Shown one piece after another: positions 16,241 through 59,544 of a stretch of 64,000 bases of DNA (the first letter of the stretch is position 1; every line of letters begins with the position of its first letter). The DNA lies in assembly GCA_001780275.1 (NCBI GenBank), contig MFGB01000013.1, positions 10,693-74,692 on the forward strand, given 5' to 3'. The notes beneath the pieces are model-generated. The model was not told where the DNA came from. It worked only from the letters and a program-made list of their open reading frames with translations, and searched no databases. This DNA is from Candidatus Falkowbacteria bacterium RIFOXYA2_FULL_47_19 (GTDB lineage: Bacteria; Patescibacteriota; Patescibacteriia; Patescibacteriales; UBA12075). The position numbers and the translations under genes are program-made.

Positions 16241-16326
16241 GAATTAAAAGATAAATTGCCGTTCAGATTTCAATTAATTTGGACGGCCAACTGCAAAATT
16301 CAGCATTCCCCATGATGCATTTCCCC

Positions 16327-25300: not shown

Positions 25301-28300
25301 TTTTTAATATCTGGGCTTACGATCTTGCCGGCAACAAGGCGACGGCCACGATCGAGGCGACCGGCGCCACAGACCCGTCTTTTACGCCCCCGTTAGGTTA
25401 TTTTACGATCGGAGGAAGCGCGGAGAGGACGAACGGGTCGGGTGTAGTCGATATTACGATCCAGGTTGACGATCCGGATAACGATGATACGGTCCGGGCC
25501 AAGATCATGTACAAGTCCGGAGCGGTCTGTTCTTCCGGCATGTTTTCGGAAGGCTACTCCGATCCGACTTTGGACGCGACCGACGCCAATATTTCCGCCA
25601 CTTACGGCGACCCGGATATCGATAACGCTTACCCCTACCAGGTCGGCACTACCTCAAGCTTTATACTCACTTCCGGCGCGGGCGATAATTTTGTTTTATT
25701 CGACTGGCTCTCAATGACGGATTTAGCCGGCGTCGAGGGCGATTACTGCTTGGGACTTGTCGTTAACGACGGCATGTATGATCAGCTGGCAACTAATACG
25801 ATCGCGGTCGAGATCGACAATAAATTGCCGGCCGTACCGGGATACTTGAGGCTTGAAAGCAAGCATTACGACAGCATAGAACTAAGATTCGGCACGACCA
25901 GCGCGGACACGCATTTTACCGAGTATAAGGTATTTTACAAAGAAGGAACGGCGGGCGTAACGGAAGCCGATACGGTCTTCGATAAGACCGACGACCCTGA
26001 TCTTGATGACGTAAATTTCGGGGGCACCTCGACGACAACGATCACGGGACTAAATCCCAATACGACTTATGTTTTTAATATCCTGGCTTACGATTCTTAC
26101 GGCAATAAGGCGACCGCCACGACCGAACTTACCGTCAAGACCAACGCCCGGCCGACGAATATTTCAGCCGACGGGCAATATCTTGATGACGGCGTAACGC
26201 CGATCGTGAACGGATCATGGATCGACGAAAATAACGTTATTTTTCGGGCTTCGGCGCATGACCAGGACGCGGCCGACCTCGTAACTTTTTACTATCAGCT
26301 CATTACCGCGACCGGTACTTATCTCTCCTCTTTAACCCCGCCGGGAAACACCTGCGTTTACGGGACGACTTTCCTTGCCTGCGATTCGAAGGTTTGGGCC
26401 GTGTCCACCTCCACTTCCGACCTTCCGGCCGACTGGTACGATTCGAACTGGCTATACCGCAAAAAGATAACGATCAACGCTTCGCAAGTTCCCGCTAACG
26501 CTTCCGACTTTCCGATCCTGGCGACGACTACGGACGCCAATCTCGCGGGCAAGGCGCGGTCCGACGGCTACGACATAATATTCACGGCCGCGGACGGCAC
26601 GACGCCTCTCGATTACGAGCGGGAATATTATAACGGCGCCACGGGCCAGTTAGCGGTCTGGATCGAGACAGATCTGTCTTCGACGACCGATACGGAGCTT
26701 TATATGTATTATGGCAATTCCGGCGCGAATATTGACCCGGCCACGACCACCGGCGTCTGGGACTCCTCTTACCGCGGGGTCTGGCATTTGGAAGAAAACG
26801 TGGTCGATGAAGGGAGTTCCGCGGACGCGCACGAGGATTCCTGCTCTTACGCCAATAACGCCGACCAGTACGGCAATAACGAATATTCTTCCTGGATCTA
26901 CCGCGGCCAGGATTTCGACGGTTTAAACGACTATATTTCGGTTCCGGACCACAGTTCCCTGGATCTGTCCGACGCCCTGTCGGTGGAATTCTGGATAGAG
27001 GGCGCAGCGAGCGAGCAGACCGCGACTAAGACTGTTTATTCCGCGGCCGGAAACGATACTTTTACGGTTCCGCCGGGGGTAACCGCGGTTACTTTAAAAA
27101 GCTGGGGCGCTGGCGGCGGCGGAGGAGGAGGCTCCGCGACCGGCGGCGTGCCGAATACCAGGAATGGGGGCGGACCGGGCGGCGGCGGCGCTTTTGTTCA
27201 GGGAACATTATCGGTTGAACCCGGACAGATTCTCGATATTACAGTGGGAGGCGGCGGTACGGCCGGCACCTTAGTGACTACATCCGGACAGGGCGGCGGC
27301 GGCGGCGGCCGAAGCAGCGTTTATCGGAGCGGTACCCCCCTTGTCATAGCGGCGGCTGGCGGCGGCGGCGGCGGCGGCACGAACGATGAGGCGGCTCAGG
27401 GCGAGACCGGCGGCGCCGGCGGCGCTATCCAGGGCGAGGATGGCGGTGATACCAACGGCTCAGTGGGTGGCGGCGGCGGCACCCAGAGCGCCGGCGGTAC
27501 GGCCGGCACCGGCACTAACACCGGTACGGCCGGCGGATCGCTTACAGGCGGCGCGGGCGCGGATGGCCGCAATAATCAGGGTGCCGATGGATCCGGACCG
27601 GCCGGCGGCTTCGGCGGTGGCGCTGCCGGCGGCCAGGGCGATGCCGCCGGTACTTATCCGGCTGGCGGCGGCGGCGGCGCGGGTTATTACGGCGGCGGCG
27701 GCGGCGGCGAAGCCGCCGGTTCATTAAACGGCGGCGCGGGCGGCGGCGGCGGCTCCTCTTTCGTGTCCGCTTCCGTAACGGCTACGACCACGACCGGCGG
27801 CAGCGGCTATACTCCGGCCAATACGGGCGATTCCGATTATGAAAGCAACACCGGCGCGGGCGGAGACGGCGGAGCGGCCGGAGGATCCGGCGCTAACGGC
27901 GGCAGCGGTTTGGTAGTGGTCAGCTATACTCCGGCGGTTACGATTGTGGGCAAGGGTAATGACGCCTACCAGATCAGCCTTGATGGAGATATGAATATTT
28001 TTGCGCAGATAAACAGCCAGCCCGTATCGACCCAAATCGTTCCAGGCTGGCATCATATCGTTATGACTTACGACCGGAGCGCCGGCGGTACAGATGAACT
28101 CAAATTGTATGTGGACGGAGTTTTAAGGGATACAGCCGATTTTTCCAGTGTGGTCAATACCAATAATAGCGTCGTTAAGATCGGAGAACTGTTTGATGGG
28201 CTCGTAGATGAGCTCAGAATATCGGGCATCGCGCGCTCTTCCGGTTGGATACAAACAGCTTACAATAACCAGCGCGGCGTCGCTAATTTCCTCTCCTTCG

Positions 28301-31300
28301 GTACCGAAGGCACGGTCCAGTCCTTTTATGAATCTACGCTCGTTATAACGGTTCCGGACAATCCGGATTATTCTTCGGGCTATAAATGGCAGGTTATGGC
28401 CTGCGACGACGATCTGGACTGTTCCGCCTGGGAACAATTCAATGTAACCACTCCGAATTTCAAGATCGATACGACCGATCCGTCTTCTCCGGGGCAATTA
28501 ATCGAAGCCTCGAAGACTTCCAATAGTGTAACGTTAAATTTCGGCGCGGCTACGGACGAAGATAATTTTACCGAATACCGGATATTTTATTCCACTTCTT
28601 CGCCGGTTACGGAAGCGGATTACGAGCATAACGACACGGATCTCGATTTTAAAAACTATAACGGCACCTCCGGCGTAACGATCTCGAGCTTAAATCCGAG
28701 CACTACCTATTATTTCAATATTTGGGCTTACGATATCGTCGGCCATAAAGCCAGTTCGACCGTTACGACGGTAATCTTGGAAGCGGCCGTCTCGACCCCG
28801 GGCGCGATCTTTTACACGAAAAACGACCAGGCGATCTATTACCAGGTCTGGGACGGCGCCGGCTGGGGTGTTGAGCAGTCGAGCGGCAACCTGACCGCGG
28901 CCGGCGACAATATCAGGCATATCCGGACTATACGATCCGATGACGGCGGTAAGGTCGGAATTTTGTTTAAAACCTGGGACGGGACCAATCAGGAATGGTG
29001 GGGAGCGGTTTATCGGTTCGGCGCCGACGATTTCGTGAATTATGAGATTTTAGGAACGGCCGAGGCTGACGCTACTAATAACCAGATTATAACCGGCTGT
29101 TTAACTTCGCTCTCCGGCGGAGAATTCGTCGTGGTTCGGAACGATAATACTTCAGCCGGAGCGCGCGCTTTTTCCTGGAATCCGGCGGGCGGCTGGACAG
29201 ACGAAGGCGTTATTCCGGGCACGACCGGTTCGGGCAAGATGGACGTCATGAACGGATGCGAGTTTGTCCGGCGGCCCGGCACCGATAACTACCTTCTTAT
29301 GACCTTCGATAACCTGGCGGATGTAGGCAGTATGTATTATTATGGCGGCGCAACTTTCGATAATTCGAGCGGCGCCTGGACCGCCTGGGTCGAACACTCG
29401 GATGTCGAGGAGGATACGGCAAATTACGTCGGGCAAGCTTACTTTGATCCGTCTGATAATACCCGGGGCGCGCTCTATTATTCGGATAGCAATTCCGTTT
29501 TTTACGCTCTGGCAAAATATTTCAGCGTAACCGATACTACGATAAATTACGGCGGCGCAGTTTTAAGTCCCACGACGGGAACGGAGGACTGGAACGACGA
29601 TTTCGTGCACGGCGAATTCGCGGTCAATCCCGGTTCGACAGGCATAGCTTATTTTATCGGCCGCGACATTACAGAAGAGCTGAACGTTTATAAAGTCGAC
29701 TCTTCCAATCCGACGATCGCCTGGGCGACCAGCACGAACGGCGATAATATATCCGGCGGCAATCTTTTCGATGACGGCAACTATTCCCAAAAACCGTTCG
29801 CGATAAATTTTTACAAGAACGACAAAGGCGTCGCGGCCGGAGTTTATAATACGAGCCCGACGGCGCCCTTCTATAGCGTCATTAACGCGAGTACCAACGT
29901 TTTGAGCTCCGTATCCTCGATCGAAGGCGCTACAAACGACCTTTGGACCCGGATTCGGTTTTACGACGACCCGAACGAGGATGAGTTCCTGGCTGTCATC
30001 CAGAACAACAACGTCGATTATGCCGCCGTTTTCTGGGACAGCGGCAATGAGCGATTCTATAATTCCGGTTCCCAGGCCTGGGGCGTGCGCGCGGCCGGAA
30101 CCGGCGCCGCCAGCTCCAATTTCGAATGCACTTCTTATGCCTACACAAAATATAATTCCGGACCGAACCAACCGACCGGTCTTTATCAGGCGACTTCGAC
30201 CTTCCCGGCCGCCAACCAGTCCTGGATGGCGACATCAACGATTAAATTCACGGCCTCGGCCGCCGATTACGACACGAGCGAAATCATTACCTTGTATTTG
30301 CAGCTCGTTCCGACTAACGATACTTTCACAACCTCTACCGACGAATCGACCTTCAACGCCTGCGCGATCGGCACATCCTGGACCGCCTGCAATTCCAAGA
30401 TCTGGACGATGGAGACGAGCGGCGCGGGCGATTACAGCTACACGCCTTATACCGCCACGGCCACGATAAGTTCGATCGCCTCCTCCACGACCGGCTATAA
30501 ATGGCAGGTGATCGCCTGTGATGACGAGAGCGAATGTTCGATCTGGAAAGCCTATAACGCGACCACGCCGAATTTTTACGTCGATACCGAGGCTCCGTCC
30601 GCGCCCGGAGCCTTAAATCCGACGGCCAGGACAAGCTCTTCCGTAACCCTTAATTTCGGCGCGCAAACGGACGAACCGGCCGTAAGTTTCTCCCGCTACC
30701 GGATATTTTACGCGACCTCGACGCCGGTTTTCGAGATTTACGAATGGACCGACACTGACCTTAATTTCCGCAATTACAACGGCACGACCAATACGGTCGT
30801 AACCGGCCTGGCTTCGAATACGCTTTATTATTTCAATATCTGGGCTTACGACAAAGCCGGAAACTCGGCCAGCTCGACCATAGTTGCAACCACGACCAGT
30901 ATGAACGCCAATCTCGTCCAGACCTCATTTATCCTCGAAAACGACGATGGGTCAACGGTAAACAATAATACGGCCGAAGTCGCTGCTTCAACTACCCTGA
31001 CCGGCCTTAATATCGGCGAACGCCTGAACGCGCGCATCCAGGTCGAGAATAACGGCGGCGATATTTCTTCCGGCAAAACCTATAAGCTCCAGTTCGAAAA
31101 TTATTCCGGCAATCCCGGCGTCTGGAACGACGTGGGCGCGGCCACATCCGTGAGTTTCGCTTTCGGTCTGTCCGGCGCCAACGGCGATGCGGTCGTGCCG
31201 GATAAAGCCTCGCCGAACGGCCTGACGCCGAAATACGGCACCTGGCACGAGAATACGAACACGACCGCCGCCTTTACCTTAAGTAACGGCGAATATACGG

Positions 31301-34017
31301 AATTCGTCTTCGCGGTTCATGTCGGCTACGCGGCCACGAGCACGACTTACCGCCTGCGGCTTTATAACGCGACCGATAATAAGCCGCTCGACAGCTATAA
31401 TAATTATCCGATGTTTTCGACCGTAACCACGGAAACCAAACGTTATTCTAAGGGCTTCTACGCGAGTCTGCCCGCAACGGCCGCTGATCTCACTTATTTC
31501 CTTGATCCGGAAGGCTACGCCGACGTCCTAACGGACGATTCTAATTATGATCCGGCCACTTCCACGGCCCAGTATCCGATCTTCCTATTCGCGACTAAAC
31601 ATACGAATAACACGAATGCGGCCTCAAGTACCTGGAACGGCCAGTCGTCCGTGGCGCCGTCAGGGAGTAACGTCGTGCTACAGGTTTTCCGGGTAAGTAC
31701 CGCCGCCTGGGTAACCGTGGATACTGAAACAGCAGCTGGCGCCAATACTGACTTCACTCTGACCGGAGCGGTAAATTCCTCCGTGTCCGATTATTATGCG
31801 GCCGGCGACTGGATCTATTGGCGCGTGTATCAGGTCTCGGGAAGCGAATCGCTCCGGACCGATCGTTACGTTGCCAATTTCGCTCCGCCCGCCGCTGATA
31901 CGGCCCAGATCCATTACCGTTGGCGCCAGGATGACGGCTCCGAGACGACCGCCACCTGGCTCGAAGCCGAAGATACCGGCAGCGCGACTTTAGGGCCGCA
32001 GCTCGGCCGGGGCAGTTCCACCCGTATCCGTATCGCGGTTACCAATACCGGCGGGGGCACTGCTACCGATTATTATTACAGATTAGAATATGCTTCTTCG
32101 ACCGACGGCTGCGCTACCGACCCGGCCTACTGGGCCGCGGTGCCGATCGCGGCCGGGAGCGACCATTTCGAAATGGCTCCGAGCGGCAATTTTTCTAATA
32201 ATTTTCCTACCACTGCGCAAACTGCCAATACTGAAGGTTATACTTTTATAGCCGGAGAAATGATTAAAGATCCGCTTGCCCTTACTGGAGAGATAGATTT
32301 ATCCGAAAACCAATATACCGAACTCGAATACATGATCCAGGTAACCAATAACGCGCCGGACGCGGCTACGTATTGCTTTCGGGTAACGAATAACGGCGCC
32401 GTACTTAATTCTTATGATATCTATCCGATAGTGACTTTATCCGGCAATACCAATAACGCCCCTCATTTCACGACCGATCCGGCCGACGGCGGTTCAAGCG
32501 CGGCCGACCCGACCGATTACGGCGATAATGTCGATTTTACCGCGGTTGCGGCCGATGACGACGGCGACAGCTATTACTTAGCGGTCTGCCGGACCGCGGC
32601 CGTTTCCCCGGGCCTTGACGGAGCGCCGAGCTGCCCCGGCGGAGCCTGGTGCGTCTCCGGCCAGACGGCGAGCAACGGGAACGCCTCCTGCAGCTATACG
32701 ACCGCCACTACGACCGAAACGAACGCCTGGTACGCTTATGCCTGCGATAAAGTCCCGGGCTTCGGTATTGCCCGATGTTCGGCCGTATCCCAGGGCTCGG
32801 GAGATCCGGATGAAGATTCGCCCTTCATAATAAATAATCCGCCGGTATTCACCTCGGTCGTTACGACCGTAAATAACCAGGATCCGGGCGGGACTTTTTG
32901 GATAACCGCTTACGCGACCGATACGGACACGGCCGGCTCCGCCGATACTTTAAGGCTCCGCGTCTGCACGACCAATAACGGCGCTTTCGGCGGCTGTATC
33001 GACGGCGCTTACTGCTCGGAACTGGCTTCGAGTTCGCCGAATACTTCCTGCTCGTTCGCAACCTCTACTCCTGCGCCCGCCGGCAACTGGAATTATTACG
33101 CTTTCGTTTATGACAGCCACGGTCTGGCCGCCGCCGCCAATTCCCGTTCGGGTACCTACACGGTCAATAATACCGCTCCGACTATCGGCACTTTTTATCT
33201 TAACGACGGAGACGATATCCAGCTGAATTTAAAGGATGACGCCGATACCGTTATTTCGACCATCGGCGGGAGCATCCAGGATTTGAATGGCTGTACCGAC
33301 CTGGATAGCGTGATCGGAACCATCTATATGTCCGAAGAGGAAAATACCTGCGATGACGACCCGAATAATTGCTATCAGATTCCCTATAATACCGGCATGA
33401 CGACCACCTGCACGATCGCCTGCGACCCGACCGATCTGACCCGGGCTTCTACCACCTGCACGGCTGAATTTAAATATTTCGCGGTTCCGACCGATGATGT
33501 TTACGAGTCTAATCCCTGGAAGGATTATAATTGGCTTTCTTATATTCTATTGAACGATGGCGTCAATCTGGCGGCCTCCACCTCCCAGGGAGTGGAGCTC
33601 GGCACGAATTTAGCCTTAGACGTGGTCGAAAGTACGATCGATTTTGGTACTTGGGGCGCCGGTCAGAATACCGGCATGAATAATTCCACCACTACCGTGG
33701 AGAACGCCGGTAATTCTCCGATTGACGTTGAGGTTTACGGCACGACCATGTTCTCGAATCCGCCGGCCGGCTACGATATCGCCGTGAACCAGATAAAATT
33801 CAATAATGTAAACTTCAATTATGTGTTTGAAACAAACACCCTGGATACCGTCGCTAACCCTAAACCCATAGAGCTATTCGCCCCCCGGGCCACGACCACC
33901 GCCGGTTCTATGGACGACGTTTATTGGGGCATCGGCATTCCGTTTTTGGCCGTGCCGGCGAATTATATAGGCGAGAATACTTTTACCGTGTGGATTGACG
34001 AGGATGATTGGAATTAG
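16327..34017 (+). CDS. Giant modular cell-surface protein (~5,900 aa)
   Basis: An uninterrupted ORF runs 16279-34017 (TTG 16279, ATGs at 16312/16315/16327); the start is taken at MQKLRGYF... followed by a signal-anchor helix. Domains seen are an acidic low-complexity region, 2 x DUF2341-like (WLYRKKITINA...YIYYGN) plus LamG-like units, 5 x FN3, 4 x GYKWQV[LMI]ACDD Cys-pair modules, 3 x RWRQDDG-type beta domains, a glycine-rich domain and a C-terminal Ig-like triple module. Confidence 0.9.
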   Translation: MQKLRGYFSNLFVKLGLLILFLLAVFGYTQGRFIFVQAVADELNIYPGNYAAEGGENEFTWQNTDNTFTQDLGSNAQFGEFNIDNSAFISLRTFEEIAPASAEATAGKNNDGGEESAETDGEDGADTSETDEGSGDETVGESAPDETPDDEVGDSDNTDATSEEESGTVEVIDLSEIPADTLITNYEGGETSNNNGGGNETPPAESASESASEPAPEVPAAESTPTGDSGGETSRIWNRIKSLAVYLDFFRSKLVWAQESLENFIEGSEEEAGSVPLATDNNFIAELDFIKQSLIFSDFFVPAEYHDNDIKDLKLRVSLAARSDFIDDYIRLEYRTENGWRLLGEINALSDVSNSLNSDYFAFSLPATVGWDEIKDLSVRVSYINTNPPEARAGKTLEIYLDALWIEIGQENAISDEELELNPDEEDASTTEEELPEILPADLRDDFELITLTPKNDFKNNEKPQFKFRFKKKRNLLEGLGAGFLDVFRDEYKDISIRAEAVNGRGQTESEIELTVNYLSDGEFAVNIIKQSRQFKPGKFNIKISIASDSLTVGRTVDFSQDFTWGVLALNTNKSIYESGENAYLQIAVLDDLGDTLCAVDFIELEIKAPDGGIAYLRDTNDLIISNPECGPNNVITSPDFYAYYGVGPLGAYEMTLRVQTENGEREITDVFEVRAPDEAIFSVERIGPTRIYPKADYDMGFRIIPQADFRGNFVEVVPANFKITEQKRNGALIPILVRDKTNAQTGEMEQEIIWKVDWRAGREYVLSYTFDAPNISPEFFLLGPARLYGKIAIWDETGVREELTDFTEIRQWQIASDALSIIYTKQTAGVEIDGTDYDIINSITGFSESEYVLFGGVGNITADGGTTRIETSLATADGSGLLTETDEENEGPNADDRWAYFAMTKRIMSSSDTIYLHGYDYTGSGEADESFLMGMDMSTMGTESIDYFWDNDAVVDGTILTTIAGENNRASITFTPDGVSQYLIIASARIDAQVESEIGEMAIWNGSASIVNHIRDNEDTADEPLLFAATTTIPAAVSTTYSVRVRGETNNSIDYLSSSILVIRLNYYENFSCDAKANAGNVGTSPTIMASTDLQLSEAGDVTVLYFGGFSSPAQDSEVSFRARQDASIRFQLTEGDTGNEPGRNAVWDTGDVHNLLWLDNISGVNTNSHAYDLAMEASAVGPTAPWAMVCAWSEAEYVPPPDVNVSATGTQVSTIDINSQDNYVGGKFVLTNSSSTAITVNSINIVELGTVNASTSLENIRLYYDLDTTLPYDCTSTSYDLSDLQFGATSTAFSDTNGTSTFSGSVNISATSSMCVYVVLDVNSNADKDETLEVEINNPSTDVGLSAGARVGPVTSVELSGTTVLYAPDVMATAYEQRKSDNFTDIANQGWTNENQVNLYALAQAMGGATTTYYDFYFELLDESGTYTTATSAPGSPCLENVIYDNCANKVWLASSTLPGWYNGSWLYRKKITINAAQVVANETGFPVMATTTDSDFAHTSFGGKMASSSAADIVITDSDGLTVLNYEREYYAPATGQIALWIKTDISSTTNKELYIYYGNAGISADQSTTTGVWDDNYMGVWHMNNNPAGTAPQLRDSTKNAHHATANGAWNIGDLVSTPMGQGIDSPGVNNQEFQIANSGNWLNGLTNMSVEIWLDSNVINADMGIITCDEASEDSSYVMMRYDTSGWAGGGDDVIKVINQYESASYVQSANRQYLGYSWTASHDIDFYVNGSIDTPTSDGGSSFTSISGCNTFLIGDGGNVPSGNWNGIIDEFRISSTTRSAARFRTQNNNYGNVNNFLTFGNEESSSQIITEGVVNLTAIPDRGSSTDPTKGYKWQVLACDDKGSCSNWDAFNSTLPNFKVDTAAPDAPGSLTLATSTATSITVEFHNETTEPNFAYYKIFYKAGFSGVDTDDTEHDDPDLDHIDYNNTSTTTITGLIPETQYVINIWAYDLAGNKTGATEITVTTPSAPHARARSVLFHAGDYSGDGSTGQDTNTDQVFDTFNFELAETGAEIKNAYILFETHFEAYNTTAGDYSGYNLSFDACSEPCTADAGSGSGRILVDSNSVLSYDETAGKQARLLADVTEEVQLSAYTGSGADMEAQIGYRLETDVTGPSIAYARAVLVVTYSYDDDNSTNLTNTVIYPLESTASGDQGSKLAVQADDCTKSPLPSSNCALFDYNMVIPEVSAKLSQWFELYGVNDGHGASDVAINANIEGSNVDSDTYYHESVLAGTQGNFPRVIIDNVTGYSENIAQVFEYALTSPGGGQYYALGGEVIETYTAPRSAGTKTRTVSFPIGLVFDNRGSMSASAQVYFPENGSGSGVVDIKKAWFRLIGDNYNTGAYGLAVSSKVGNNSVTATSTYALNAGATVIRPSYNIVHVIPSADYSELEAANATAPKEVTVNATTTAVSSPDMGAVSAELMITYTYTGETSGYLTSLNLFGGQSDQHGASQADTETAADAVFPELRGEETLRAAALLGSFSLSASDGTMPGTWFYMDANIATGTPACSTSTGYMARDDAVNGYAEFYQDVFSAMSTDDDESYSVCYANDNAADTNAGARMNAVWLYTYQWDAPPPAFTQSDWRWYNNADSIAPGTARAAEKTSITGVNIGEAIRLRVNIGITSEDLAAMTSAFKLQYGKASDCASLGESDWTDLGGVAGSEAWRGYNNPDPGDGTTLSAAVLSSSDVAESYEESNNSASNPRAIDIGEYGEWDWVVYNNAASSSADYCFRMVESDGTVLNDYLSDSYPKLTTAPANTAAASASNLAQYRNNGTTAIANNSWVNENTVKLRAAATDPNISERIALYYEIASSSSGSFTTATTSPASWCYAGTAWGSCPSRIWAATSSLGDYRTSPFTATATIPGLPESSEGYKWQVLACDDDGACADTWTKYNLTIPNFKIDTVAPTPPGNLTFASSTATMISLTFGASTTEANFDRYRIYYRAGVAGVTESDSQHTDNAALLFKNYGGYGTTTVFNLSAGTNYVFNIWAYDLAGNKATATIEATGATDPSFTPPLGYFTIGGSAERTNGSGVVDITIQVDDPDNDDTVRAKIMYKSGAVCSSGMFSEGYSDPTLDATDANISATYGDPDIDNAYPYQVGTTSSFILTSGAGDNFVLFDWLSMTDLAGVEGDYCLGLVVNDGMYDQLATNTIAVEIDNKLPAVPGYLRLESKHYDSIELRFGTTSADTHFTEYKVFYKEGTAGVTEADTVFDKTDDPDLDDVNFGGTSTTTITGLNPNTTYVFNILAYDSYGNKATATTELTVKTNARPTNISADGQYLDDGVTPIVNGSWIDENNVIFRASAHDQDAADLVTFYYQLITATGTYLSSLTPPGNTCVYGTTFLACDSKVWAVSTSTSDLPADWYDSNWLYRKKITINASQVPANASDFPILATTTDANLAGKARSDGYDIIFTAADGTTPLDYEREYYNGATGQLAVWIETDLSSTTDTELYMYYGNSGANIDPATTTGVWDSSYRGVWHLEENVVDEGSSADAHEDSCSYANNADQYGNNEYSSWIYRGQDFDGLNDYISVPDHSSLDLSDALSVEFWIEGAASEQTATKTVYSAAGNDTFTVPPGVTAVTLKSWGAGGGGGGGSATGGVPNTRNGGGPGGGGAFVQGTLSVEPGQILDITVGGGGTAGTLVTTSGQGGGGGGRSSVYRSGTPLVIAAAGGGGGGGTNDEAAQGETGGAGGAIQGEDGGDTNGSVGGGGGTQSAGGTAGTGTNTGTAGGSLTGGAGADGRNNQGADGSGPAGGFGGGAAGGQGDAAGTYPAGGGGGAGYYGGGGGGEAAGSLNGGAGGGGGSSFVSASVTATTTTGGSGYTPANTGDSDYESNTGAGGDGGAAGGSGANGGSGLVVVSYTPAVTIVGKGNDAYQISLDGDMNIFAQINSQPVSTQIVPGWHHIVMTYDRSAGGTDELKLYVDGVLRDTADFSSVVNTNNSVVKIGELFDGLVDELRISGIARSSGWIQTAYNNQRGVANFLSFGTEGTVQSFYESTLVITVPDNPDYSSGYKWQVMACDDDLDCSAWEQFNVTTPNFKIDTTDPSSPGQLIEASKTSNSVTLNFGAATDEDNFTEYRIFYSTSSPVTEADYEHNDTDLDFKNYNGTSGVTISSLNPSTTYYFNIWAYDIVGHKASSTVTTVILEAAVSTPGAIFYTKNDQAIYYQVWDGAGWGVEQSSGNLTAAGDNIRHIRTIRSDDGGKVGILFKTWDGTNQEWWGAVYRFGADDFVNYEILGTAEADATNNQIITGCLTSLSGGEFVVVRNDNTSAGARAFSWNPAGGWTDEGVIPGTTGSGKMDVMNGCEFVRRPGTDNYLLMTFDNLADVGSMYYYGGATFDNSSGAWTAWVEHSDVEEDTANYVGQAYFDPSDNTRGALYYSDSNSVFYALAKYFSVTDTTINYGGAVLSPTTGTEDWNDDFVHGEFAVNPGSTGIAYFIGRDITEELNVYKVDSSNPTIAWATSTNGDNISGGNLFDDGNYSQKPFAINFYKNDKGVAAGVYNTSPTAPFYSVINASTNVLSSVSSIEGATNDLWTRIRFYDDPNEDEFLAVIQNNNVDYAAVFWDSGNERFYNSGSQAWGVRAAGTGAASSNFECTSYAYTKYNSGPNQPTGLYQATSTFPAANQSWMATSTIKFTASAADYDTSEIITLYLQLVPTNDTFTTSTDESTFNACAIGTSWTACNSKIWTMETSGAGDYSYTPYTATATISSIASSTTGYKWQVIACDDESECSIWKAYNATTPNFYVDTEAPSAPGALNPTARTSSSVTLNFGAQTDEPAVSFSRYRIFYATSTPVFEIYEWTDTDLNFRNYNGTTNTVVTGLASNTLYYFNIWAYDKAGNSASSTIVATTTSMNANLVQTSFILENDDGSTVNNNTAEVAASTTLTGLNIGERLNARIQVENNGGDISSGKTYKLQFENYSGNPGVWNDVGAATSVSFAFGLSGANGDAVVPDKASPNGLTPKYGTWHENTNTTAAFTLSNGEYTEFVFAVHVGYAATSTTYRLRLYNATDNKPLDSYNNYPMFSTVTTETKRYSKGFYASLPATAADLTYFLDPEGYADVLTDDSNYDPATSTAQYPIFLFATKHTNNTNAASSTWNGQSSVAPSGSNVVLQVFRVSTAAWVTVDTETAAGANTDFTLTGAVNSSVSDYYAAGDWIYWRVYQVSGSESLRTDRYVANFAPPAADTAQIHYRWRQDDGSETTATWLEAEDTGSATLGPQLGRGSSTRIRIAVTNTGGGTATDYYYRLEYASSTDGCATDPAYWAAVPIAAGSDHFEMAPSGNFSNNFPTTAQTANTEGYTFIAGEMIKDPLALTGEIDLSENQYTELEYMIQVTNNAPDAATYCFRVTNNGAVLNSYDIYPIVTLSGNTNNAPHFTTDPADGGSSAADPTDYGDNVDFTAVAADDDGDSYYLAVCRTAAVSPGLDGAPSCPGGAWCVSGQTASNGNASCSYTTATTTETNAWYAYACDKVPGFGIARCSAVSQGSGDPDEDSPFIINNPPVFTSVVTTVNNQDPGGTFWITAYATDTDTAGSADTLRLRVCTTNNGAFGGCIDGAYCSELASSSPNTSCSFATSTPAPAGNWNYYAFVYDSHGLAAAANSRSGTYTVNNTAPTIGTFYLNDGDDIQLNLKDDADTVISTIGGSIQDLNGCTDLDSVIGTIYMSEEENTCDDDPNNCYQIPYNTGMTTTCTIACDPTDLTRASTTCTAEFKYFAVPTDDVYESNPWKDYNWLSYILLNDGVNLAASTSQGVELGTNLALDVVESTIDFGTWGAGQNTGMNNSTTTVENAGNSPIDVEVYGTTMFSNPPAGYDIAVNQIKFNNVNFNYVFETNTLDTVANPKPIELFAPRATTTAGSMDDVYWGIGIPFLAVPANYIGENTFTVWIDEDDWN
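19927..19935 (+). repeat. C9 homopolymer inside the giant ORF
   Basis: gtg ccc ccc ccc gac encodes VPPPD and is codon-aligned. Losing one C gives a TAA 17 codons downstream. Gaining one C gives cga cgt TAA immediately. Confidence 0.95.
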
Positions 34018-48103: not shown

Positions 48104-49843
48104 ATGTACTCGCTGGAAAAAATAAAAATTGAAATCGCCGGGGAGATAAATCGGATGATCGGGAAAGACCTGGTTCAGGCATCCGACCTGGTTTATCCGC
48201 CCGATGCCGGCATGGGGGACTTGAGCCTGCCTTGCTTTAATCCGGCCAGGGAGCTTAAAAAAAGTCCGGTCGAAACCGCCAAGAAACTAGGGTCGGAATT
48301 TCCGAAAATAGATTCCGTGGCCACCGTAAGCGTCGCCGGTCCGTATCTTAATTTCAAACTCGATAAAATCTATTTTTCCAAAATAATCGTAACGGAGATA
48401 AATAAGCTAAAGGACAAGTACGGCAATAACGACACCGGAAAAGGCAGACGGGTGATGATCGAATATTCCAACGCCAATACCCACAAGGAATATCATATCG
48501 GACATTTGCGCAACCTTTGCTTTGGTGATGCGGTTCAGCGGATACTGGCCGCGAACGGCTATAAAAGCCTGCCGGTTTCTTATATTAACGATTTCGGAAT
48601 CCACGCGGCCAAAACGATCTGGTGGACATTCCACCCGGATAATAAATACGCCAAAGCGGTTTTGGCTGACCTTGAGCCGGAAAAACGGGGAGCATTTTTA
48701 GGCGAGATGTATGCGGCTTCCTGTCAGAGGGAAAAAGAAGATAAACTGGCCAAGCAGATGATCGAGCTGGTCATGAAAAAGATCGAGAGCCGCCAGGGAG
48801 AAGAATATGAGTTGTGGAAAAAAACCAGAGAGTGGACGATAGAGCAGTTCGACCGCATATACAAGGAATTAGGGATAAAATTCGTTCATATTTTTTATGA
48901 AAGTGAATATATCGACCAGGGACGAGCGGAAGTAAATGCCATGATAAAAAGCGGGCTTCTTAGCGTCAGTCAGGGAGCGGTAATCGCCGATCTTGAAAAA
49001 TACAAGCTGGGAGTACTTATGTTTCTCCGGTCGGACGGCACGGCTTTATATCCGGTGGCGGACCTGGCCTTAGCCAGAACAAAGGTCAATAATTATGATC
49101 TAGACAGGTCTGTTTACGTTACTGATACGCGGCAAAGTCTTCACTTTAAGCAGCTGTTCAAAGTGCTTGAACTTTCCGGGCTTAAAGCCGAGATGATCAA
49201 CCTGGGATACGAGTTCGTGAAATTACCCGGCGGCATGATGTCGTCGCGTTCCGGCAACGTCATTACCTACGAAGATCTGCGCGGGGAGCTCATGAAAAAA
49301 GCCATTCGCGAAACCGGGCAAAGACACGATGACTGGAGTGCCGTTAAGATAGAAACCGTCGCGGCGGCAATCACCATGGGCGCTTTGAAATTCGAGATGA
49401 TCAAGGTGGGCGCGGACCAAGTAATTACATACGACATCGATAAAGCCTTGAAATTCGAAGGTTTTACCGCGGCTTATCTGCAATACGCTTACGCGCGGAT
49501 CAGAAGTATCATCCGGAAAGCGAATGATGATTCCGCGGAACCGTCGGTTAATACCGGCAACGATAAAGCCGATACGGAAAACGACAAGGAGCATGAATTG
49601 ATCATGACGCTTTCTAAATATACGGAAGCGGTAAAAATGGCGGGAGAAGAATATGACCCGTCGGAGATCGCCAAATATCTTTTCGGGCTGGCGCAGATAT
49701 TCAATGATTATTATCACGCCGTGCCAGTGCTTAAAACCGACAAGGCCACGAGAAAAGCGAGGTTGAAACTCTGCGAGGCCGTAAGTTCGGTCATAAAAAA
49801 CGGTTTAGGTTTATTGGGGATCGGAGTGGTTGAGGAAATGTGA
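48104..49843 (+). CDS. argS: Arginyl-tRNA synthetase
   Basis: SNANTHKEYHIGHLRN (HIGH), MSSRSGNV, and a DALR anticodon-binding C-terminus ending ...VVEEM. Confidence 0.9.
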   Translation: MYSLEKIKIEIAGEINRMIGKDLVQASDLVYPPDAGMGDLSLPCFNPARELKKSPVETAKKLGSEFPKIDSVATVSVAGPYLNFKLDKIYFSKIIVTEINKLKDKYGNNDTGKGRRVMIEYSNANTHKEYHIGHLRNLCFGDAVQRILAANGYKSLPVSYINDFGIHAAKTIWWTFHPDNKYAKAVLADLEPEKRGAFLGEMYAASCQREKEDKLAKQMIELVMKKIESRQGEEYELWKKTREWTIEQFDRIYKELGIKFVHIFYESEYIDQGRAEVNAMIKSGLLSVSQGAVIADLEKYKLGVLMFLRSDGTALYPVADLALARTKVNNYDLDRSVYVTDTRQSLHFKQLFKVLELSGLKAEMINLGYEFVKLPGGMMSSRSGNVITYEDLRGELMKKAIRETGQRHDDWSAVKIETVAAAITMGALKFEMIKVGADQVITYDIDKALKFEGFTAAYLQYAYARIRSIIRKANDDSAEPSVNTGNDKADTENDKEHELIMTLSKYTEAVKMAGEEYDPSEIAKYLFGLAQIFNDYYHAVPVLKTDKATRKARLKLCEAVSSVIKNGLGLLGIGVVEEM

Positions 49844-55830: not shown

Positions 55831-55868
55831 CTATTTAAACCTTTAAACCTTGATCTCTCGGATTCTTT

Positions 55869-55908
55869 GACCCTTTGTGTTCCTCTGGAATTTTAAAGGG
55901 TCTTTTTA
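55869..55908 (+). terminator. Rho-independent terminator
   Basis: gacccttt...aaagggtc 8-bp stem with an 18-nt loop, followed by T5 and T8. Confidence 0.65.
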
Positions 55909-55917
55909 TTTTTTTGA

Positions 55918-55945
55918 TTGACAATTTTTAAAAATCATGTATAAT
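55918..55945 (+). promoter_or_regulatory. Sigma70-type promoter of the glyQS leader
   Basis: TTGACA (55918-55923), 16-nt spacer, TATAAT (55940-55945). Confidence 0.7.
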
Positions 55946-55951
55946 ATAATC

Positions 55952-56126
55952 ATTGACAATCAAGTAGGTCGATTCCAGGGAGATTGGCACCCTGTCCGTT
56001 TAATAACGGAAATCGGCAAAGCAAGGTGTCCCCGCCCATGGCGGGGAAAGCTAGATGGAACCGCGGGGAAACAACCTCGTTCTAGTATCGCAAAAAGATT
56101 ATTGTGATACGAGAATGGGGTTTTTT
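55952..56126 (+). promoter_or_regulatory. T-box riboswitch leader (glycine, putative GGC specifier) with a terminator/antiterminator switch
   Basis: T-box sequence cuaga-UGGAACC-gcgggg (56051-68). The antiterminator has helix A1 56051-55/56081-85, a 7-nt bulge UGGAACC, and helix A2 56064-68/56075-79. A competing 17-bp terminator spans 56075-56120 plus U6. GGC-A sits in a loop at 55986-55989. Confidence 0.75.
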
Positions 56127-56153
56127 AATATCATTTTAATAGAAATAAAAAAT

Positions 56154-57536
56154 ATGACCACAGAACAAAAACAACAAGATGACAAGATGCAGAAGATCGT
56201 GGCTTTCTGCAAAAGAAAAGGCTTTATATTCCCGGCCTGCGAAATATACGGCGGGCTGGCCAATTCGTATAGTTACGGCCCTTACGGAGCGGAACTTAAA
56301 AGCAATATTAAGAAAATGTGGTGGAAAAAGTTCGTGCAGGAACGCTCCGATATCGTCGGGATGGACGGGCCGATCCTCCTGGCCACTAAATTATGGGAAG
56401 CATCCGGACACACCGAGGGCTTTAACGACGCTATGGTTGATTGCAAGAAATGTAAGAAAAGATACCGGGCCGATCATGTGGTCAAAGAGCTGACCGGAAA
56501 AGACATGGAAGGCGATCTTGCCGGCATGACCAATACTCTGCAGGGCGGCCTAAAGTGCCCGGAGTGCGGAGGGAGCGATTGGACCGAGGTCAAAAATATG
56601 AGCCAGATGTTCAAAACGGAAATGAACGCCGTGGAAGGGCCGATATACTTAAGGCCGGAAACCGCCGGCGCCATTTTCGTTGATTTCAAGAATATTACGG
56701 ATTCAATGCGTGTCAAAGTTCCGTTCGGGATCGCGCAGATAGGCAAAGCGTTCCGTAACGAGATCGTGGCCAGGAATTTTATTTTCCGGATCAGGGAGTT
56801 CGAACAGATGGAGATCGAATATTTCATAGAACCGGAAACGAAGTGGGAGCCTTTGTTCGAGGATTGGCTTGATAAGCAAACAGAATTCGCCCTGTCTATC
56901 GGCGCTAAACCCGAAGACCTTCGCCGTTATGAACACCCCAAAGAAAAACTTTCCCACTATTCAAAAAAAACCATCGATACCGAGTATAATTTTCCGTTCG
57001 GATTCGGCGAATTGTTCGGCTTGGCGCATCGCGGCGACTTCGATCTTACCCAGCATTCGAAACTTTCCGGCGTTAAACTTGAGTATTTTGACGCCGCCAA
57101 TAATAAAAGATATACCCCGCACGTTTTGGAACCGACCGTCGGCGTCGATCGGCTTATATTGACCGCTATTTGCGCGGCTTACACGGAGGAAAAGATCGAA
57201 GACGAAACCAGGGTGGTAATGAAATTTCCTTACGGCGTCGCGCCGATAAAAATCGCGGTTTTCCCCCTTCTTAAAAACAAGCCGGAGCTCGTGAATAAAG
57301 CCAGGGAAGTTTTTGATTCACTCAAATCGCGGTACATGTGCGAGTTTGACGACAACGGCAATATCGGCAAACGCTACCGCAGGCAGGACGAGATCGGTAC
57401 ACCCTTTTGCGTAACCGTTGATTTTGACAGCTTGGAAAAAGACGACGTTACGGTCCGGGATCGCGATACCATGGAGCAGACCAGGATCCGAATCGAAGGA
57501 TTGAACGGATATTTTCAGGATAGATTAGACAGATAA
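56154..57536 (+). CDS. glyQS: Glycyl-tRNA synthetase, alpha2 (GlyQS) type
   Basis: MQKIVAFCKRKGFIFPACEIYGGLANSYSYGPYG..., class II motifs (FRNEI.ARNFIFRIREFEQMEIEYF; GVDRL), and an anticodon-binding C-terminus. The track ORF's upstream extension to 56055 overlaps the T-box leader. Confidence 0.9.
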   Translation: MTTEQKQQDDKMQKIVAFCKRKGFIFPACEIYGGLANSYSYGPYGAELKSNIKKMWWKKFVQERSDIVGMDGPILLATKLWEASGHTEGFNDAMVDCKKCKKRYRADHVVKELTGKDMEGDLAGMTNTLQGGLKCPECGGSDWTEVKNMSQMFKTEMNAVEGPIYLRPETAGAIFVDFKNITDSMRVKVPFGIAQIGKAFRNEIVARNFIFRIREFEQMEIEYFIEPETKWEPLFEDWLDKQTEFALSIGAKPEDLRRYEHPKEKLSHYSKKTIDTEYNFPFGFGELFGLAHRGDFDLTQHSKLSGVKLEYFDAANNKRYTPHVLEPTVGVDRLILTAICAAYTEEKIEDETRVVMKFPYGVAPIKIAVFPLLKNKPELVNKAREVFDSLKSRYMCEFDDNGNIGKRYRRQDEIGTPFCVTVDFDSLEKDDVTVRDRDTMEQTRIRIEGLNGYFQDRLDR

Positions 57537-58176: not shown

Positions 58177-59544
58177 ATGAGAATATTTAAAGACACAAAT
58201 AAAACTGGCCTTAAAAATACCGACAAGCTCGCGACTTCAACCCGGAGAAAAGCCGTTTTAAAGTTAATATCCGCTGGCTTTGAACGGGCGGACGCGGGAG
58301 GATTAATGAAGGCGGCGGTCGGGTATAGCCGGGAATTCAATTCTCTGAAAGCGCAAAACAGCACTTACGACCTTATTAAGGGGCGGATTTTCGTGATTGG
58401 CGGCGGCAAGGCGGCCGGTCGCATGGCTATGGCCCTGGAAGAAATAATCGGTCCGGAAAATATAACGGCCGGAGGCGTGGTCGGGATCGATACCGGCTAT
58501 AAAACCGAAAAAATAAAAATTTTTAAAGGCGGGCATCCGATTCCTAACGAAGGAGGAATCTCGGCTGTCAGGAGGATAATGTCACTCAAGAAAAAATACG
58601 ATATCGGAGAAGAAGATCTGGTGATTTGCCTTTTGTCCGGCGGCGCTTCCGCGCTTCTGCCTTGCCCGGTCGACTCCATCAGGCTTAAAGACAAGCAAAA
58701 AACGACCGATCTACTCCTTCGGTCCGGAGCGGACATAGGGGAGATTAATACGGTCAGAAAACATCTGTCGCAAATCAAGGGCGGAGGATTGGGAAGATTT
58801 TTTTATCCCGCGCCGGTCGTTTCGATCGTTATTTCGGACGTAGCCGGCAACGATCCGGCCGTGATCGCTTCCGGTCCGACCGTTCCCGACCCCACGACCT
58901 TCAAGGATGCCTACGGCGTTATGCGTAAATACGGGCTTTACGATAAAATACCACGGAGAGTATCAACATATCTTCTACGGGGCCTTGAAGGACGGGCGGA
59001 TGAAACGCCCAAAGAACTCGGAAATTGTACTTATCACGTCATCGGAGATAACGCGATTATTTTAGAAGCTATGGCCCGAGCCGCCAAATCATCCGGTTTT
59101 ACCCCGAAAATAATCACGCCGGAATTTTCCGGCGATCCGGAAGCAACCGCGATCCGCTTGGCGCGGGAGATCATGAGCGGCAAATATACCGGCTACGACG
59201 TTCTCCTGGCCGGCGGCGAAACTACGCTTAAACTTCCGGATAAGCACGGCCGGGGAGGACGAAACAGGCACTTGGCCGCGGTTTTCTCAGTGGCTATGGA
59301 AGAATATCGCGGCCTTTGGGCGGCGGCTTTTGTTTCAACCGACGGAATCGATTATTTATCGAACGCGGCCGGAGCGATCGTCGATGACGGCACGCTAGGG
59401 ATCGTCAGGTCTAAAAAGACGGATATAGTTTCTTACATAAAAAAATTCGACACGGACAATCTGTTCAAGCGGATAGGAAACTCCCTCGTTGTAACCGGGC
59501 CGACCGGCACGAACGTCGGCGACATATTCGTTTGCGTATTATAA
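58177..59544 (+). CDS. Glycerate 2-kinase / hydroxypyruvate reductase family (DUF4147 + MOFRL)
   Basis: RIFVIGGGKAAGRMAMALEE, LLSGGASALL, VISDVAGND and LAGGETTLKL match the MOFRL-type glycerate kinase pattern. Confidence 0.8.
   Translation: MRIFKDTNKTGLKNTDKLATSTRRKAVLKLISAGFERADAGGLMKAAVGYSREFNSLKAQNSTYDLIKGRIFVIGGGKAAGRMAMALEEIIGPENITAGGVVGIDTGYKTEKIKIFKGGHPIPNEGGISAVRRIMSLKKKYDIGEEDLVICLLSGGASALLPCPVDSIRLKDKQKTTDLLLRSGADIGEINTVRKHLSQIKGGGLGRFFYPAPVVSIVISDVAGNDPAVIASGPTVPDPTTFKDAYGVMRKYGLYDKIPRRVSTYLLRGLEGRADETPKELGNCTYHVIGDNAIILEAMARAAKSSGFTPKIITPEFSGDPEATAIRLAREIMSGKYTGYDVLLAGGETTLKLPDKHGRGGRNRHLAAVFSVAMEEYRGLWAAAFVSTDGIDYLSNAAGAIVDDGTLGIVRSKKTDIVSYIKKFDTDNLFKRIGNSLVVTGPTGTNVGDIFVCVL

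Follow-up and report, generated by a model that had tools for sequence, protein, structure and literature searches.

A compact glycine T-box leader upstream of glyS in a Falkowbacteria genome and its relatives

The 64,000-nt stretch of DNA analysed here (the window; Candidatus Falkowbacteria bacterium RIFOXYA2_FULL_47_19, contig MFGB01000013.1) carries, between a terminator-like hairpin and the gene for glycine–tRNA ligase, a leader region at 55918–56126 on the + strand that is very probably a tRNA-Gly-sensing T-box transcription attenuator of reduced architecture, controlling the glycyl-tRNA synthetase (GlyRS) gene of this ultra-small bacterium. The evidence supports calling this leader a T-box by its defining discriminator features and a new architectural variant conserved in one clade of the candidate phyla radiation (CPR). 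Its architecture, competing folds, conservation, covariation and gene context are direct observations. A first-pass annotation of the window had proposed a glycine T-box with a textbook antiterminator and a compact Stem I without a distal platform. The antiterminator is borne out by the discriminator features, by a leave-one-out covariance model and by a sub-threshold match to the Rfam T-box model RF00230; the compact Stem I is borne out by 13 related leaders, their co-varying stems and U-GG(C/A) loop, and the RF00230 alignment of one of them (L001). Every element that the annotation listed is present, displaced by at most 1–2 nt, and Stem III, the purine string AGGUG, the AA and the G56063·U56080 wobble are additions to its list.

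T-boxes are defined by antiterminator helices A1 and A2 with a 7-nt UGGN-ACC bulge, by a terminal G·U pair of A2 and by the order 5′-RRRxG-Stem III-AA-3′ (PMC7583486). All three discriminator features occur in the window, as UGGAACC, G56063·U56080 and AGGUG-Stem III-AA. Folded without the terminator, the leader consists of a three-way junction (55968–56017), an 11-nt linker, Stem III, AA, A1, the bulge and A2. The elements of its 3′ half are:

56018–56028 (+): single-stranded linker AAAGCAAGGUG, ending in the purine string AGGUG (56024–56028), which fits RRRxG
56029–56047 (+): Stem III, U-CCCCGCC CAU GGCGGGG-A, 8 bp in the antiterminator-form fold and of high posterior in the RF00230 alignment; followed by AA at 56048–56049
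56050–56086 (+): antiterminator, with A1 (56050–56055 paired with 56081–56086), bulge UGGAACC (56056–56062) and A2 (56063–56068 paired with 56075–56080)
56073–56126 (+): intrinsic terminator and U6, 20 bp with one symmetric 1×1 mismatch, −25.5 kcal/mol

Both antiterminator helices have 6 bp, including G56050·U56086 in A1 and the closing G56063·U56080 in A2. The first-pass annotation had recognised the 7-nt bulge and had paired 56051–55 with 56081–85 in A1 and 56064–68 with 56075–79 in A2, all of which holds; each helix gains one of these wobble pairs. The terminator is built of a 5′ arm (56073–56093), a loop (56094–56101), a 3′ arm (56102–56122) and a U-run (56121–56126), and with its U-tract lies 28 nt upstream of the glyS start codon. 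Because its 5′ arm takes up the 3′ strands of both A2 and A1 (shared positions 56075–56086), the antiterminator and terminator folds are mutually exclusive. The annotation had described this competition and the U6 tract correctly, and its 17-bp terminator helix was a slight undercount.

To place the leader among its relatives, we collected 171 loci around relatives of the window's GlyRS, the closest of which come from Parcubacteria, Moranbacteria, Falkowbacteria, Magasanikibacteria and other Patescibacteria/CPR. Members were identified with a relaxed motif scan, whose core also admits UGGAAAC as the bulge, and with a covariance model; the two agree. The compact leader is present in 13 loci (L001, L004, L020, L028, L081, L082, L083, L162, L164, L165, L166, L168 and L169), and these together with the window make up the 14 leaders considered below. 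The leader of L170 is identical to that of L164, L171 is truncated, and L030, L143 and L144 carry canonical-looking leaders. Compact leaders occur in ~12 of the 26 scorable relatives with at least 63% GlyRS identity, and among ~140 more distant loci only in L020 and L028; within this clade, the element is thus common. Automatic delimitation of Stem III over-extended in about half of the cases, and we relied on clean cases, inspection and RF00230 alignments.

The antiterminator was aligned across 15 sequences, comprising 12 CPR leaders and 3 canonical leaders. In this alignment, 95% of cells in the helices are paired, versus 41–48% when the partners are slid by 1–3 columns; both sides have changed in 7 of the 12 pairs (34 cells), and none of 500 shuffles reached the covariation score. 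The G·U pair closing A2 is invariant (15/15), and A1 reads AGA/UCU in the window versus GGG/CCC in the canonical leaders. A covariance model built from 11 CPR antiterminators, with the window and the canonical leaders left out, finds a single significant match in the 64 kb, at 56047–56088 (52.5 bits, E = 6e-12). Sequence fitting RRRNG stands 5′ of Stem III, adjoining it or 1 nt away, in 14/14 leaders. Further, each of the 13 scorable leaders, those of the window and of 12 relatives, has a terminator with a U-tract and a folding energy between −21 and −32 kcal/mol, and in all 13 the terminator 5′ arm is the antiterminator 3′ half; for L004, the terminator was read from the sequence, 3′ of an insertion in the A2 loop. 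Because overlapping terminators are present in every scorable member, we take the CPR leaders to be transcriptional attenuators.

Some members depart from this pattern in detail. In L004 (~2700–2880), the A2 apical loop holds an AT-rich insertion of ~170 nt with internal repeats, beyond which both 3′ strands, of A2 and of A1, and the terminator are intact. This insertion is reminiscent of ‘stem Sa’, inserted in the glyS T-boxes of staphylococci; alternatively, it may represent a small mobile element. The ACC trinucleotide of the T-box bulge is said to stabilise the discriminator fold; in four members, L082 (1381), L162 (1333), L168 (1264) and L169 (1412), the bulge UGGAAAC replaces the near-universal UGGNACC, and no compensating change was identified in these four.

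The 5′ half of the window leader is a 50-nt domain in which P1, formed by 55968–55974 and 56011–56017, closes two hairpins:

55968–56017 (+): compact Stem I domain, a three-way junction of P1, specifier hairpin and P3; identical minimum free energy (MFE) and centroid structures, −19.1 kcal/mol, z = −2.69
55976–55994 (+): specifier hairpin CAGGG/CCCUG with the 9-nt apical loop AGAUUGGCA; homologous hairpin in 13 related leaders
55986–55988 (+): specifier codon GGC (glycine), with UU (55984–55985) before it and A55989 after it
55995–56010 (+): P3 hairpin UCCGUU-UAAU-AACGGA, a perfect 6-bp helix with a zero-length linker to the specifier hairpin and without an S-turn motif

Both the MFE and the centroid fold place GGC-A (55986–55989) in the loop of a short hairpin inside the three-way junction, as the first-pass annotation had drawn it. 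L166 and L164 independently fold into the same three-helix layout with unrelated helix sequences; each has a hairpin at the P3 position, and the common string UAACGGAAAU is present in L004. All 14 leaders contain a short hairpin starting from a few to ~25 nt from the predicted start, and in all 14 the last bases of the apical loop, adjoining the 3′ strand, are U-G-G-(C/A)-N, as in the following examples:

Window: 5′ stem CAGGG, loop AGAUUGGCA, 3′ stem CCCUG
L166: 5′ stem AGGG, loop AGAUUGGCA, 3′ stem CCCU
L081: 5′ stem GAAAGG, loop AGAUUGGCG, 3′ stem CCUUUC
L083: 5′ stem GUAGG, loop GUUUGGCU, 3′ stem CCUAC
L162: 5′ stem CACGG, loop GUUUGGCU, 3′ stem CCGUG
L001: 5′ stem GGGG, loop GUUUGGCU, 3′ stem CCCC
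L169: 5′ stem GAGG, loop GAUUGGAU, 3′ stem CCUC
L164: 5′ stem GAAGG, loop GUGGCA, 3′ stem CCUUU

Loop length varies among these hairpins and, to avoid register bias, covariation was tested by pairing every 5′ strand, by a single optimising rule, both with its own 3′ strand and with those of the other leaders. Own-strand helices average 5.8 bp and the others 3.7 bp, and none of 20000 permutations reached the own-strand mean. Covariation among glyS leaders, to which the first-pass annotation had pointed as a check, is present both in the antiterminator (n = 15) and in these hairpin stems.

The loop triplet is GGC in 9 of the 14 leaders, GGA in the other 5 and nothing else, and it is the sole glycine codon common to all 14. 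Near relatives switch between the two codons: L081 has GGC and L165 GGA; L001 has GGC, and L168 and L169 have GGA. Because this variation among close leaders is synonymous, as expected of a specifier, we take the loop triplet to be the specifier. Its third position agrees with the preference for C, then A, found across T-box specifiers (TBDB paper, PMC7778990). The codon is immediately preceded by U in 14/14 leaders and by UU in 11/14; our Firmicute control, the glyQS leader L030 (Allobacillus), has AA there.

Three relatives tie this hairpin to the base of Stem I. In L001, L168 and L169, a kink-turn (K-turn) lies directly beneath the specifier hairpin; L001 reads CAGC-GUU-GA-U-GGGG ... CCCC-U-GA-GCUG. 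In the RF00230 alignment, the L001 hairpin falls with high posterior on the model's K-turn and proximal Stem I helix; the 8-nt loop GUUUGGCU stands in for 76 model positions, which cover the specifier loop, upper stem, AG bulge and distal loop; and the last four loop bases, GGC+U, come to lie on the model's codon and purine in the canonical register. By this placement, the specifier hairpin is the Stem I base, capped at the specifier loop. In the window, the GA·AG tandem of a K-turn flanks neither P1 nor the hairpin; the three-way junction is found there instead.

The distance from the −10 box to Stem III is only 48–85 nt in every member; in the Firmicute control, Stem I alone takes up ~100 nt. 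In the window leader, the AG bulge and distal-loop motif are absent, as is any S-turn-bearing helix; AGUA at 55963 was considered as an S-turn and rejected. In the minimal members, an A/U-rich single strand of 14–24 nt, ending in AAGGUG, joins the hairpin or K-turn to Stem III, which leaves no room for a Stem II with S-turn or a IIA/B pseudoknot.

Searches with RF00230 gave an answer that depends on threshold and sequence length. At the gathering score, which is 93 bits in the Rfam copy used, the model has no match in the whole window, nor has it one in a 351-nt segment at E <= 10. Given the 150-nt leader alone, it matches with 27.6 bits (E = 7.7e-5, flagged 5′-truncated), with Stem III and the antiterminator at high posterior and Stem I unmatched. 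The positive control L030 scores 76.2 bits and the CPR relatives 22–44 bits. Because a canonical leader also falls below 93 bits, the absent Rfam match reflects the model's dependence on a long Stem I and not the absence of a T-box. The first-pass annotation had named a missing Rfam match as a refutation, which the control shows to be a poor test. The curated threshold passes over the whole CPR family, and standard annotation would leave this leader unreported.

By analogy with the established T-box mechanism (PMC7583486), we infer how the leader would bind tRNA, sense its charging and act on transcription. The nascent RNA would first form the 50-nt three-way junction, whose central hairpin would offer GGC in its apical loop to the anticodon of tRNA-Gly(GCC). 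The discriminator would be made up of A1, A2 and Stem III, the last flanked by AGGUG and AA. An uncharged tRNA would pair through its 3′ UCCA with the UGGA of the bulge and lock the antiterminator, permitting read-through and synthesis of GlyRS. With a charged tRNA, the glycyl group would clash where the G·U closes A2, both helices would give up their 3′ strands to the 20-bp terminator, and transcription would stop at U6.

The UGGA of the bulge predicts a U73 discriminator in the cognate tRNA-Gly, and U73 is the usual discriminator of bacterial tRNA-Gly. No tRNA was found in the 64-kb window. A distant relative, L107, encodes tRNA-Val(UAC) and tRNA-Gly(GCC) at 1231–1381, ~120 nt upstream of glyS, such that the gene for the cognate tRNA is a neighbour of the synthetase gene. 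5′-UUGGC-3′ is complementary to positions 34–38 (5′-GCCAA-3′) of this tRNA-Gly, and the nearest-neighbour energy of the extended pairing is approximately −5.2 kcal/mol, versus −2.6 kcal/mol for the codon alone.

Stem I is reduced to a hairpin whose apical loop holds the specifier, which leaves no distal platform to bind the tRNA elbow; because a short single strand joins this hairpin to Stem III, there is no Stem II or IIA/B. Judged from sequence, two RNA–RNA contacts with the tRNA seem to be all that remain evident. The all-G/C codon–anticodon helix could compensate for the loss, as could the conserved U/UU if it extends pairing to A37–A38 of tRNA-Gly; alternatively, the U/UU might play a U33-like role, with an anticodon-loop U-turn geometry that pre-stacks the codon. 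For glycine T-boxes, it has been argued that the all-G/C GGC:GCC helix makes Stem II dispensable (PMC7583486, PMC11404447), and by analogy the same argument would apply to the CPR leaders. We tentatively propose, at slightly less than even chances, that these leaders constitute a fifth T-box architecture and the smallest natural one (~110 nt in the antiterminator form of L169), a two-contact transcriptional switch without platform or Stem II in which the loss is offset by an anticodon-loop-like specifier hairpin with UU pairing to A37–A38.

Sherwood et al. (2015) is reportedly the study cited for ileS leaders with an ultrashort Stem I. Such stems are found in translational actinobacterial leaders, and a long Stem I is generally required in transcriptional ones (PMC7583486). 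Four T-box classes have been defined (PMC10482949). Class II, the glyQS type, resembles Class I except that it is specific for glycine and carries a single-stranded linker where Stem II would be; Class III, the N. farcinica ileS type, has a short Stem I with the specifier in a 5–6-nt apical loop and requires Stem II; Class IV has a Stem I of intermediate length with its specifier located in a bulge at the side (PMC10482949).

With Class II (glyQ/glyQS of B. subtilis, Oceanobacillus iheyensis and Geobacillus kaustophilus), the CPR leaders share the GGC specifier, the linker replacing Stem II/IIA/B, RRRxG-Stem III-AA, the UGGA-ACC bulge, the G·U at the base of A2, the overlapping terminator and the control of GlyRS, as well as the basal Stem I K-turn, which is kept in L001, L168 and L169. 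Unlike in Class II, the CPR Stem I ends at the specifier, the codon lies in a 6–9-nt apical loop and not in an internal loop, and the specifier-loop S-turn, AG bulge and distal loop are missing. The absence of the last two also deprives the leaders of the interdigitated T-loops that serve as a platform for the tRNA elbow. The window differs further in its three-way junction, which replaces the K-turn, and in its A1 of AGA/UCU instead of GGG/CCC. Class III (ileS of Nocardia farcinica, Mycobacterium tuberculosis and M. smegmatis) has the same platform-less short Stem I and apical-loop specifier, but needs an S-turn Stem II and a IIA/B pseudoknot, neither of which the window has. Class III leaders are, moreover, isoleucine-specific, actinobacterial and translational, acting by Shine-Dalgarno sequestration, with an apical loop of 5–6 nt, whereas the window leader is glycine-specific, comes from CPR, ends in an intrinsic terminator and has a loop of 9 nt. 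The likeness to RF00230 lies in Stem III and the antiterminator, and the difference in the unmatched Stem I and a score of 27.6 bits against a gathering score of 93.

The CPR family, then, has a Stem I as in Class III, a linker and glycine specificity as in Class II and, with these, a transcription terminator. Because both auxiliary tRNA-binding modules are missing, it falls outside all four classes. Its layout appears to be the most stripped-down of any natural T-box in the literature searched. We found no report of this combination of compact-Stem-I features in that literature, of which coverage was incomplete, such that an earlier description is possible; with the same incomplete coverage, we found no report linking a T-box with CPR, Patescibacteria or Parcubacteria. 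Together with the CPR affiliation of the GlyRS relatives, this agrees with the first-pass annotation's remark that T-boxes are poorly documented in the lineage.

Several observations weigh against reading the leader as a tRNA-sensing attenuator. Published work has it that a truncated Stem I shows hardly any tRNA binding unless Stem II is present, and that T-boxes acting on transcription generally require the distal platform (PMC7583486), so that a two-contact transcriptional T-box runs contrary to current expectation and might need an unseen helper. The sole tRNA-Gly seen, that of L107 (U73, anticodon loop UUGCCAA), is from an unrelated contig and not from the window genome. In the RF00230 alignment, both 5′ hairpins of the window leader fall on the model's Stem II and IIA/B, at low posterior (0.3–0.7). 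The three-way junction is known from three distinct sequences, and the predicted P1 has modest support (z = −2.69 in the window; only 3 bp in L166). Finally, the leader is absent upstream of glyS in the close relatives L161, L163 and L167 (80–85% GlyRS identity), and the element is therefore patchy and dispensable.

Some of these points would suit a functional T-box in which a helper that we did not recognise replaces the platform and Stem II: docking of P3 or of the three-way junction, a protein that binds K-turns or RNA, or some peculiarity of tRNA-Gly in CPR. Extra hairpins do abut the specifier hairpin in the window, L166, L164, L081 and L004, a simple hairpin can take over part of the role of the IIA/B pseudoknot (PMC10482949), and a transcriptional T-box with just two contacts is not expected (PMC7583486). 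We nevertheless regard a helper as unlikely: no candidate protein was identified and, because the minimal members have no extra hairpin, an RNA helper is not family-wide. The loss of the element in L161, L163 and L167, the poor tRNA binding of a truncated Stem I without Stem II (PMC7583486) and the low RF00230 scores would also fit a relic, decaying or without function, of a canonical glyQS T-box, with the upper Stem I deleted and a constitutive, leaky terminator that does not respond to tRNA. A relic is quite improbable, however, when 14 leaders across GlyRS identities from 85% to ~50% keep the glycine codon in the loop, the G·U, the purine string, the UGGA and the overlapping terminator, and their helices show compensatory changes. 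Conservation of these elements with such changes points to purifying selection on both tRNA-contacting sites and not to decay.

A different assignment of the 5′ hairpin, as the elbow-binding apical loop of Stem I or as Stem II with P3 as IIA/B, would mean that tRNA identity is read elsewhere, for example at GGC-A 56015–56018, or not at all. The loop core UUGG does resemble the apical-loop consensus gUUGGUGaaA of the Firmicute control, the RF00230 placement on Stem II and IIA/B is as such a reading would have it, and GAAAUC-GGC-A at 56008–56018 resembles the 3′ side of a canonical specifier loop. Yet the A at position 5 of UGGNA, required for a T-loop, is present in only 7/14 leaders, and the L001 hairpin sits on a K-turn, with its codon in canonical register and a high-posterior alignment; on these grounds, a remnant of the distal loop or T-loop was rejected. 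Stem II with IIA/B was rejected in view of the low posterior of that alignment (only 0.3–0.7) and the absence of a GAA/AGUA S-turn from the hairpin. The second GGC-A was rejected as specifier, being base-paired in P1 and not conserved: it is absent there in most relatives, including the closest leader relatives L166 and L004, and a comparable one occurs solely in L169, at the 3′ end of the C-stem. The loop triplet, in contrast, is the only one common to all members and varies solely among synonymous glycine codons, and we consider it very improbable that the hairpin is anything other than the specifier module. Scarcely credible, finally, is an ordinary Class II glyQS-type T-box with an overlooked long Stem I. 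Its glycine specificity, single-stranded linker and transcription terminator are all found here, but only ~77 nt separate the predicted start from Stem III, 50 of them in the three-way junction, with neither AG bulge nor distal-loop motif; the previous gene's terminator lies upstream of the promoter; and RF00230 gives 76 bits on a true Class II control versus 27.6 here, with Stem I unmatched.

The gene context of the leader is simple:

55869–55915 (+): terminator-like hairpin and U-run; hairpin 55869–55902 (−16.9 kcal/mol, z = −3.87), then UUUUUAUUUUUUU (fold of 55860–55920)
55918–55945 (+): sigma-70-type promoter, TTGACA (55918–55923), 16-nt spacer and TATAAT (55940–55945), 12/12 consensus
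56154–57536 (+): glycine–tRNA ligase of the dimeric glyS/glyQS type, 460 aa; NCBIfam NF003211, 610.7 bits; Pfam tRNA-synt_2b and HGTP_anticodon

Because the hairpin at 55869–55915 closes the upstream transcription unit, the leader has its own promoter. Described as near-consensus in the first-pass annotation, TTGACA-16-TATAAT in fact matches at 12/12 positions, and the gene that follows is glycine–tRNA ligase, as proposed (NF003211). The transcription start is predicted near 55952, ~7 nt 3′ of TATAAT. The fold of the whole leader has z = −4.46, and none of 200 shuffles was equally stable. The longest GlyRS open reading frame (ORF), 56055–57536, begins at ATG 56055–56057, where the final A1 base meets the UG of the bulge, and passes in frame across the terminator. 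The database version of this GlyRS (P0001) has 493 aa and is 99% identical. Gene callers thus place the start 33 codons too early; homologues have 455–460 aa, 56154 being the real start.

The glyS leader is the sole T-box core within the 64-kb window. The window's arginyl-tRNA synthetase gene (48104–49843) starts 8 nt past the preceding ORF, without a leader; argS lies directly upstream of glyS in L161 and L167, both of which are without the T-box. Downstream of glyS, past a short minus-strand ORF, lies a glycerate-kinase-like gene (DUF4147 and MOFRL, 58177–59544); such a gene is also found 3′ of glyS on the P0023 contig, making this a conserved neighbourhood. Elsewhere in the window, a single ORF of 5912 aa (16279–34017), which looks like a giant protein, spans a GC-rich stretch, with GC of 0.53–0.58 at 20–32 kb versus ~0.47 elsewhere.

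Around glyS in the relatives, L169 carries a reverse transcriptase (RVT_1) and a bAvd accessory gene, markers of diversity-generating retroelements, at 1–1294, directly upstream of its T-box. A DUF3800-II RNA (RF02961, 68.9 bits, above its gathering score) lies near glyS on the Falkowbacteria contig L003 (329–398, minus strand). Between argS and glyS in L161 (1206–1292, minus strand), ARAGORN calls a tRNA-Arg(GCG) that is unusually long at 87 nt; it may contain an intron or insertion, or may be a false call.

In the current view of the field, transcriptional T-boxes depend on the long Stem I platform for quick tRNA capture, and a Stem I that has been truncated functions only if Stem II is present (PMC7583486, PMC10482949). 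A natural, conserved family without either module would bear on the question of what a minimal tRNA-sensing riboswitch requires, and a construct of ~110 nt would serve structural and kinetic work or synthetic tRNA sensors. The leader described here documents riboswitch-type control of an essential gene in CPR/Patescibacteria, in which regulatory RNAs are almost unknown.

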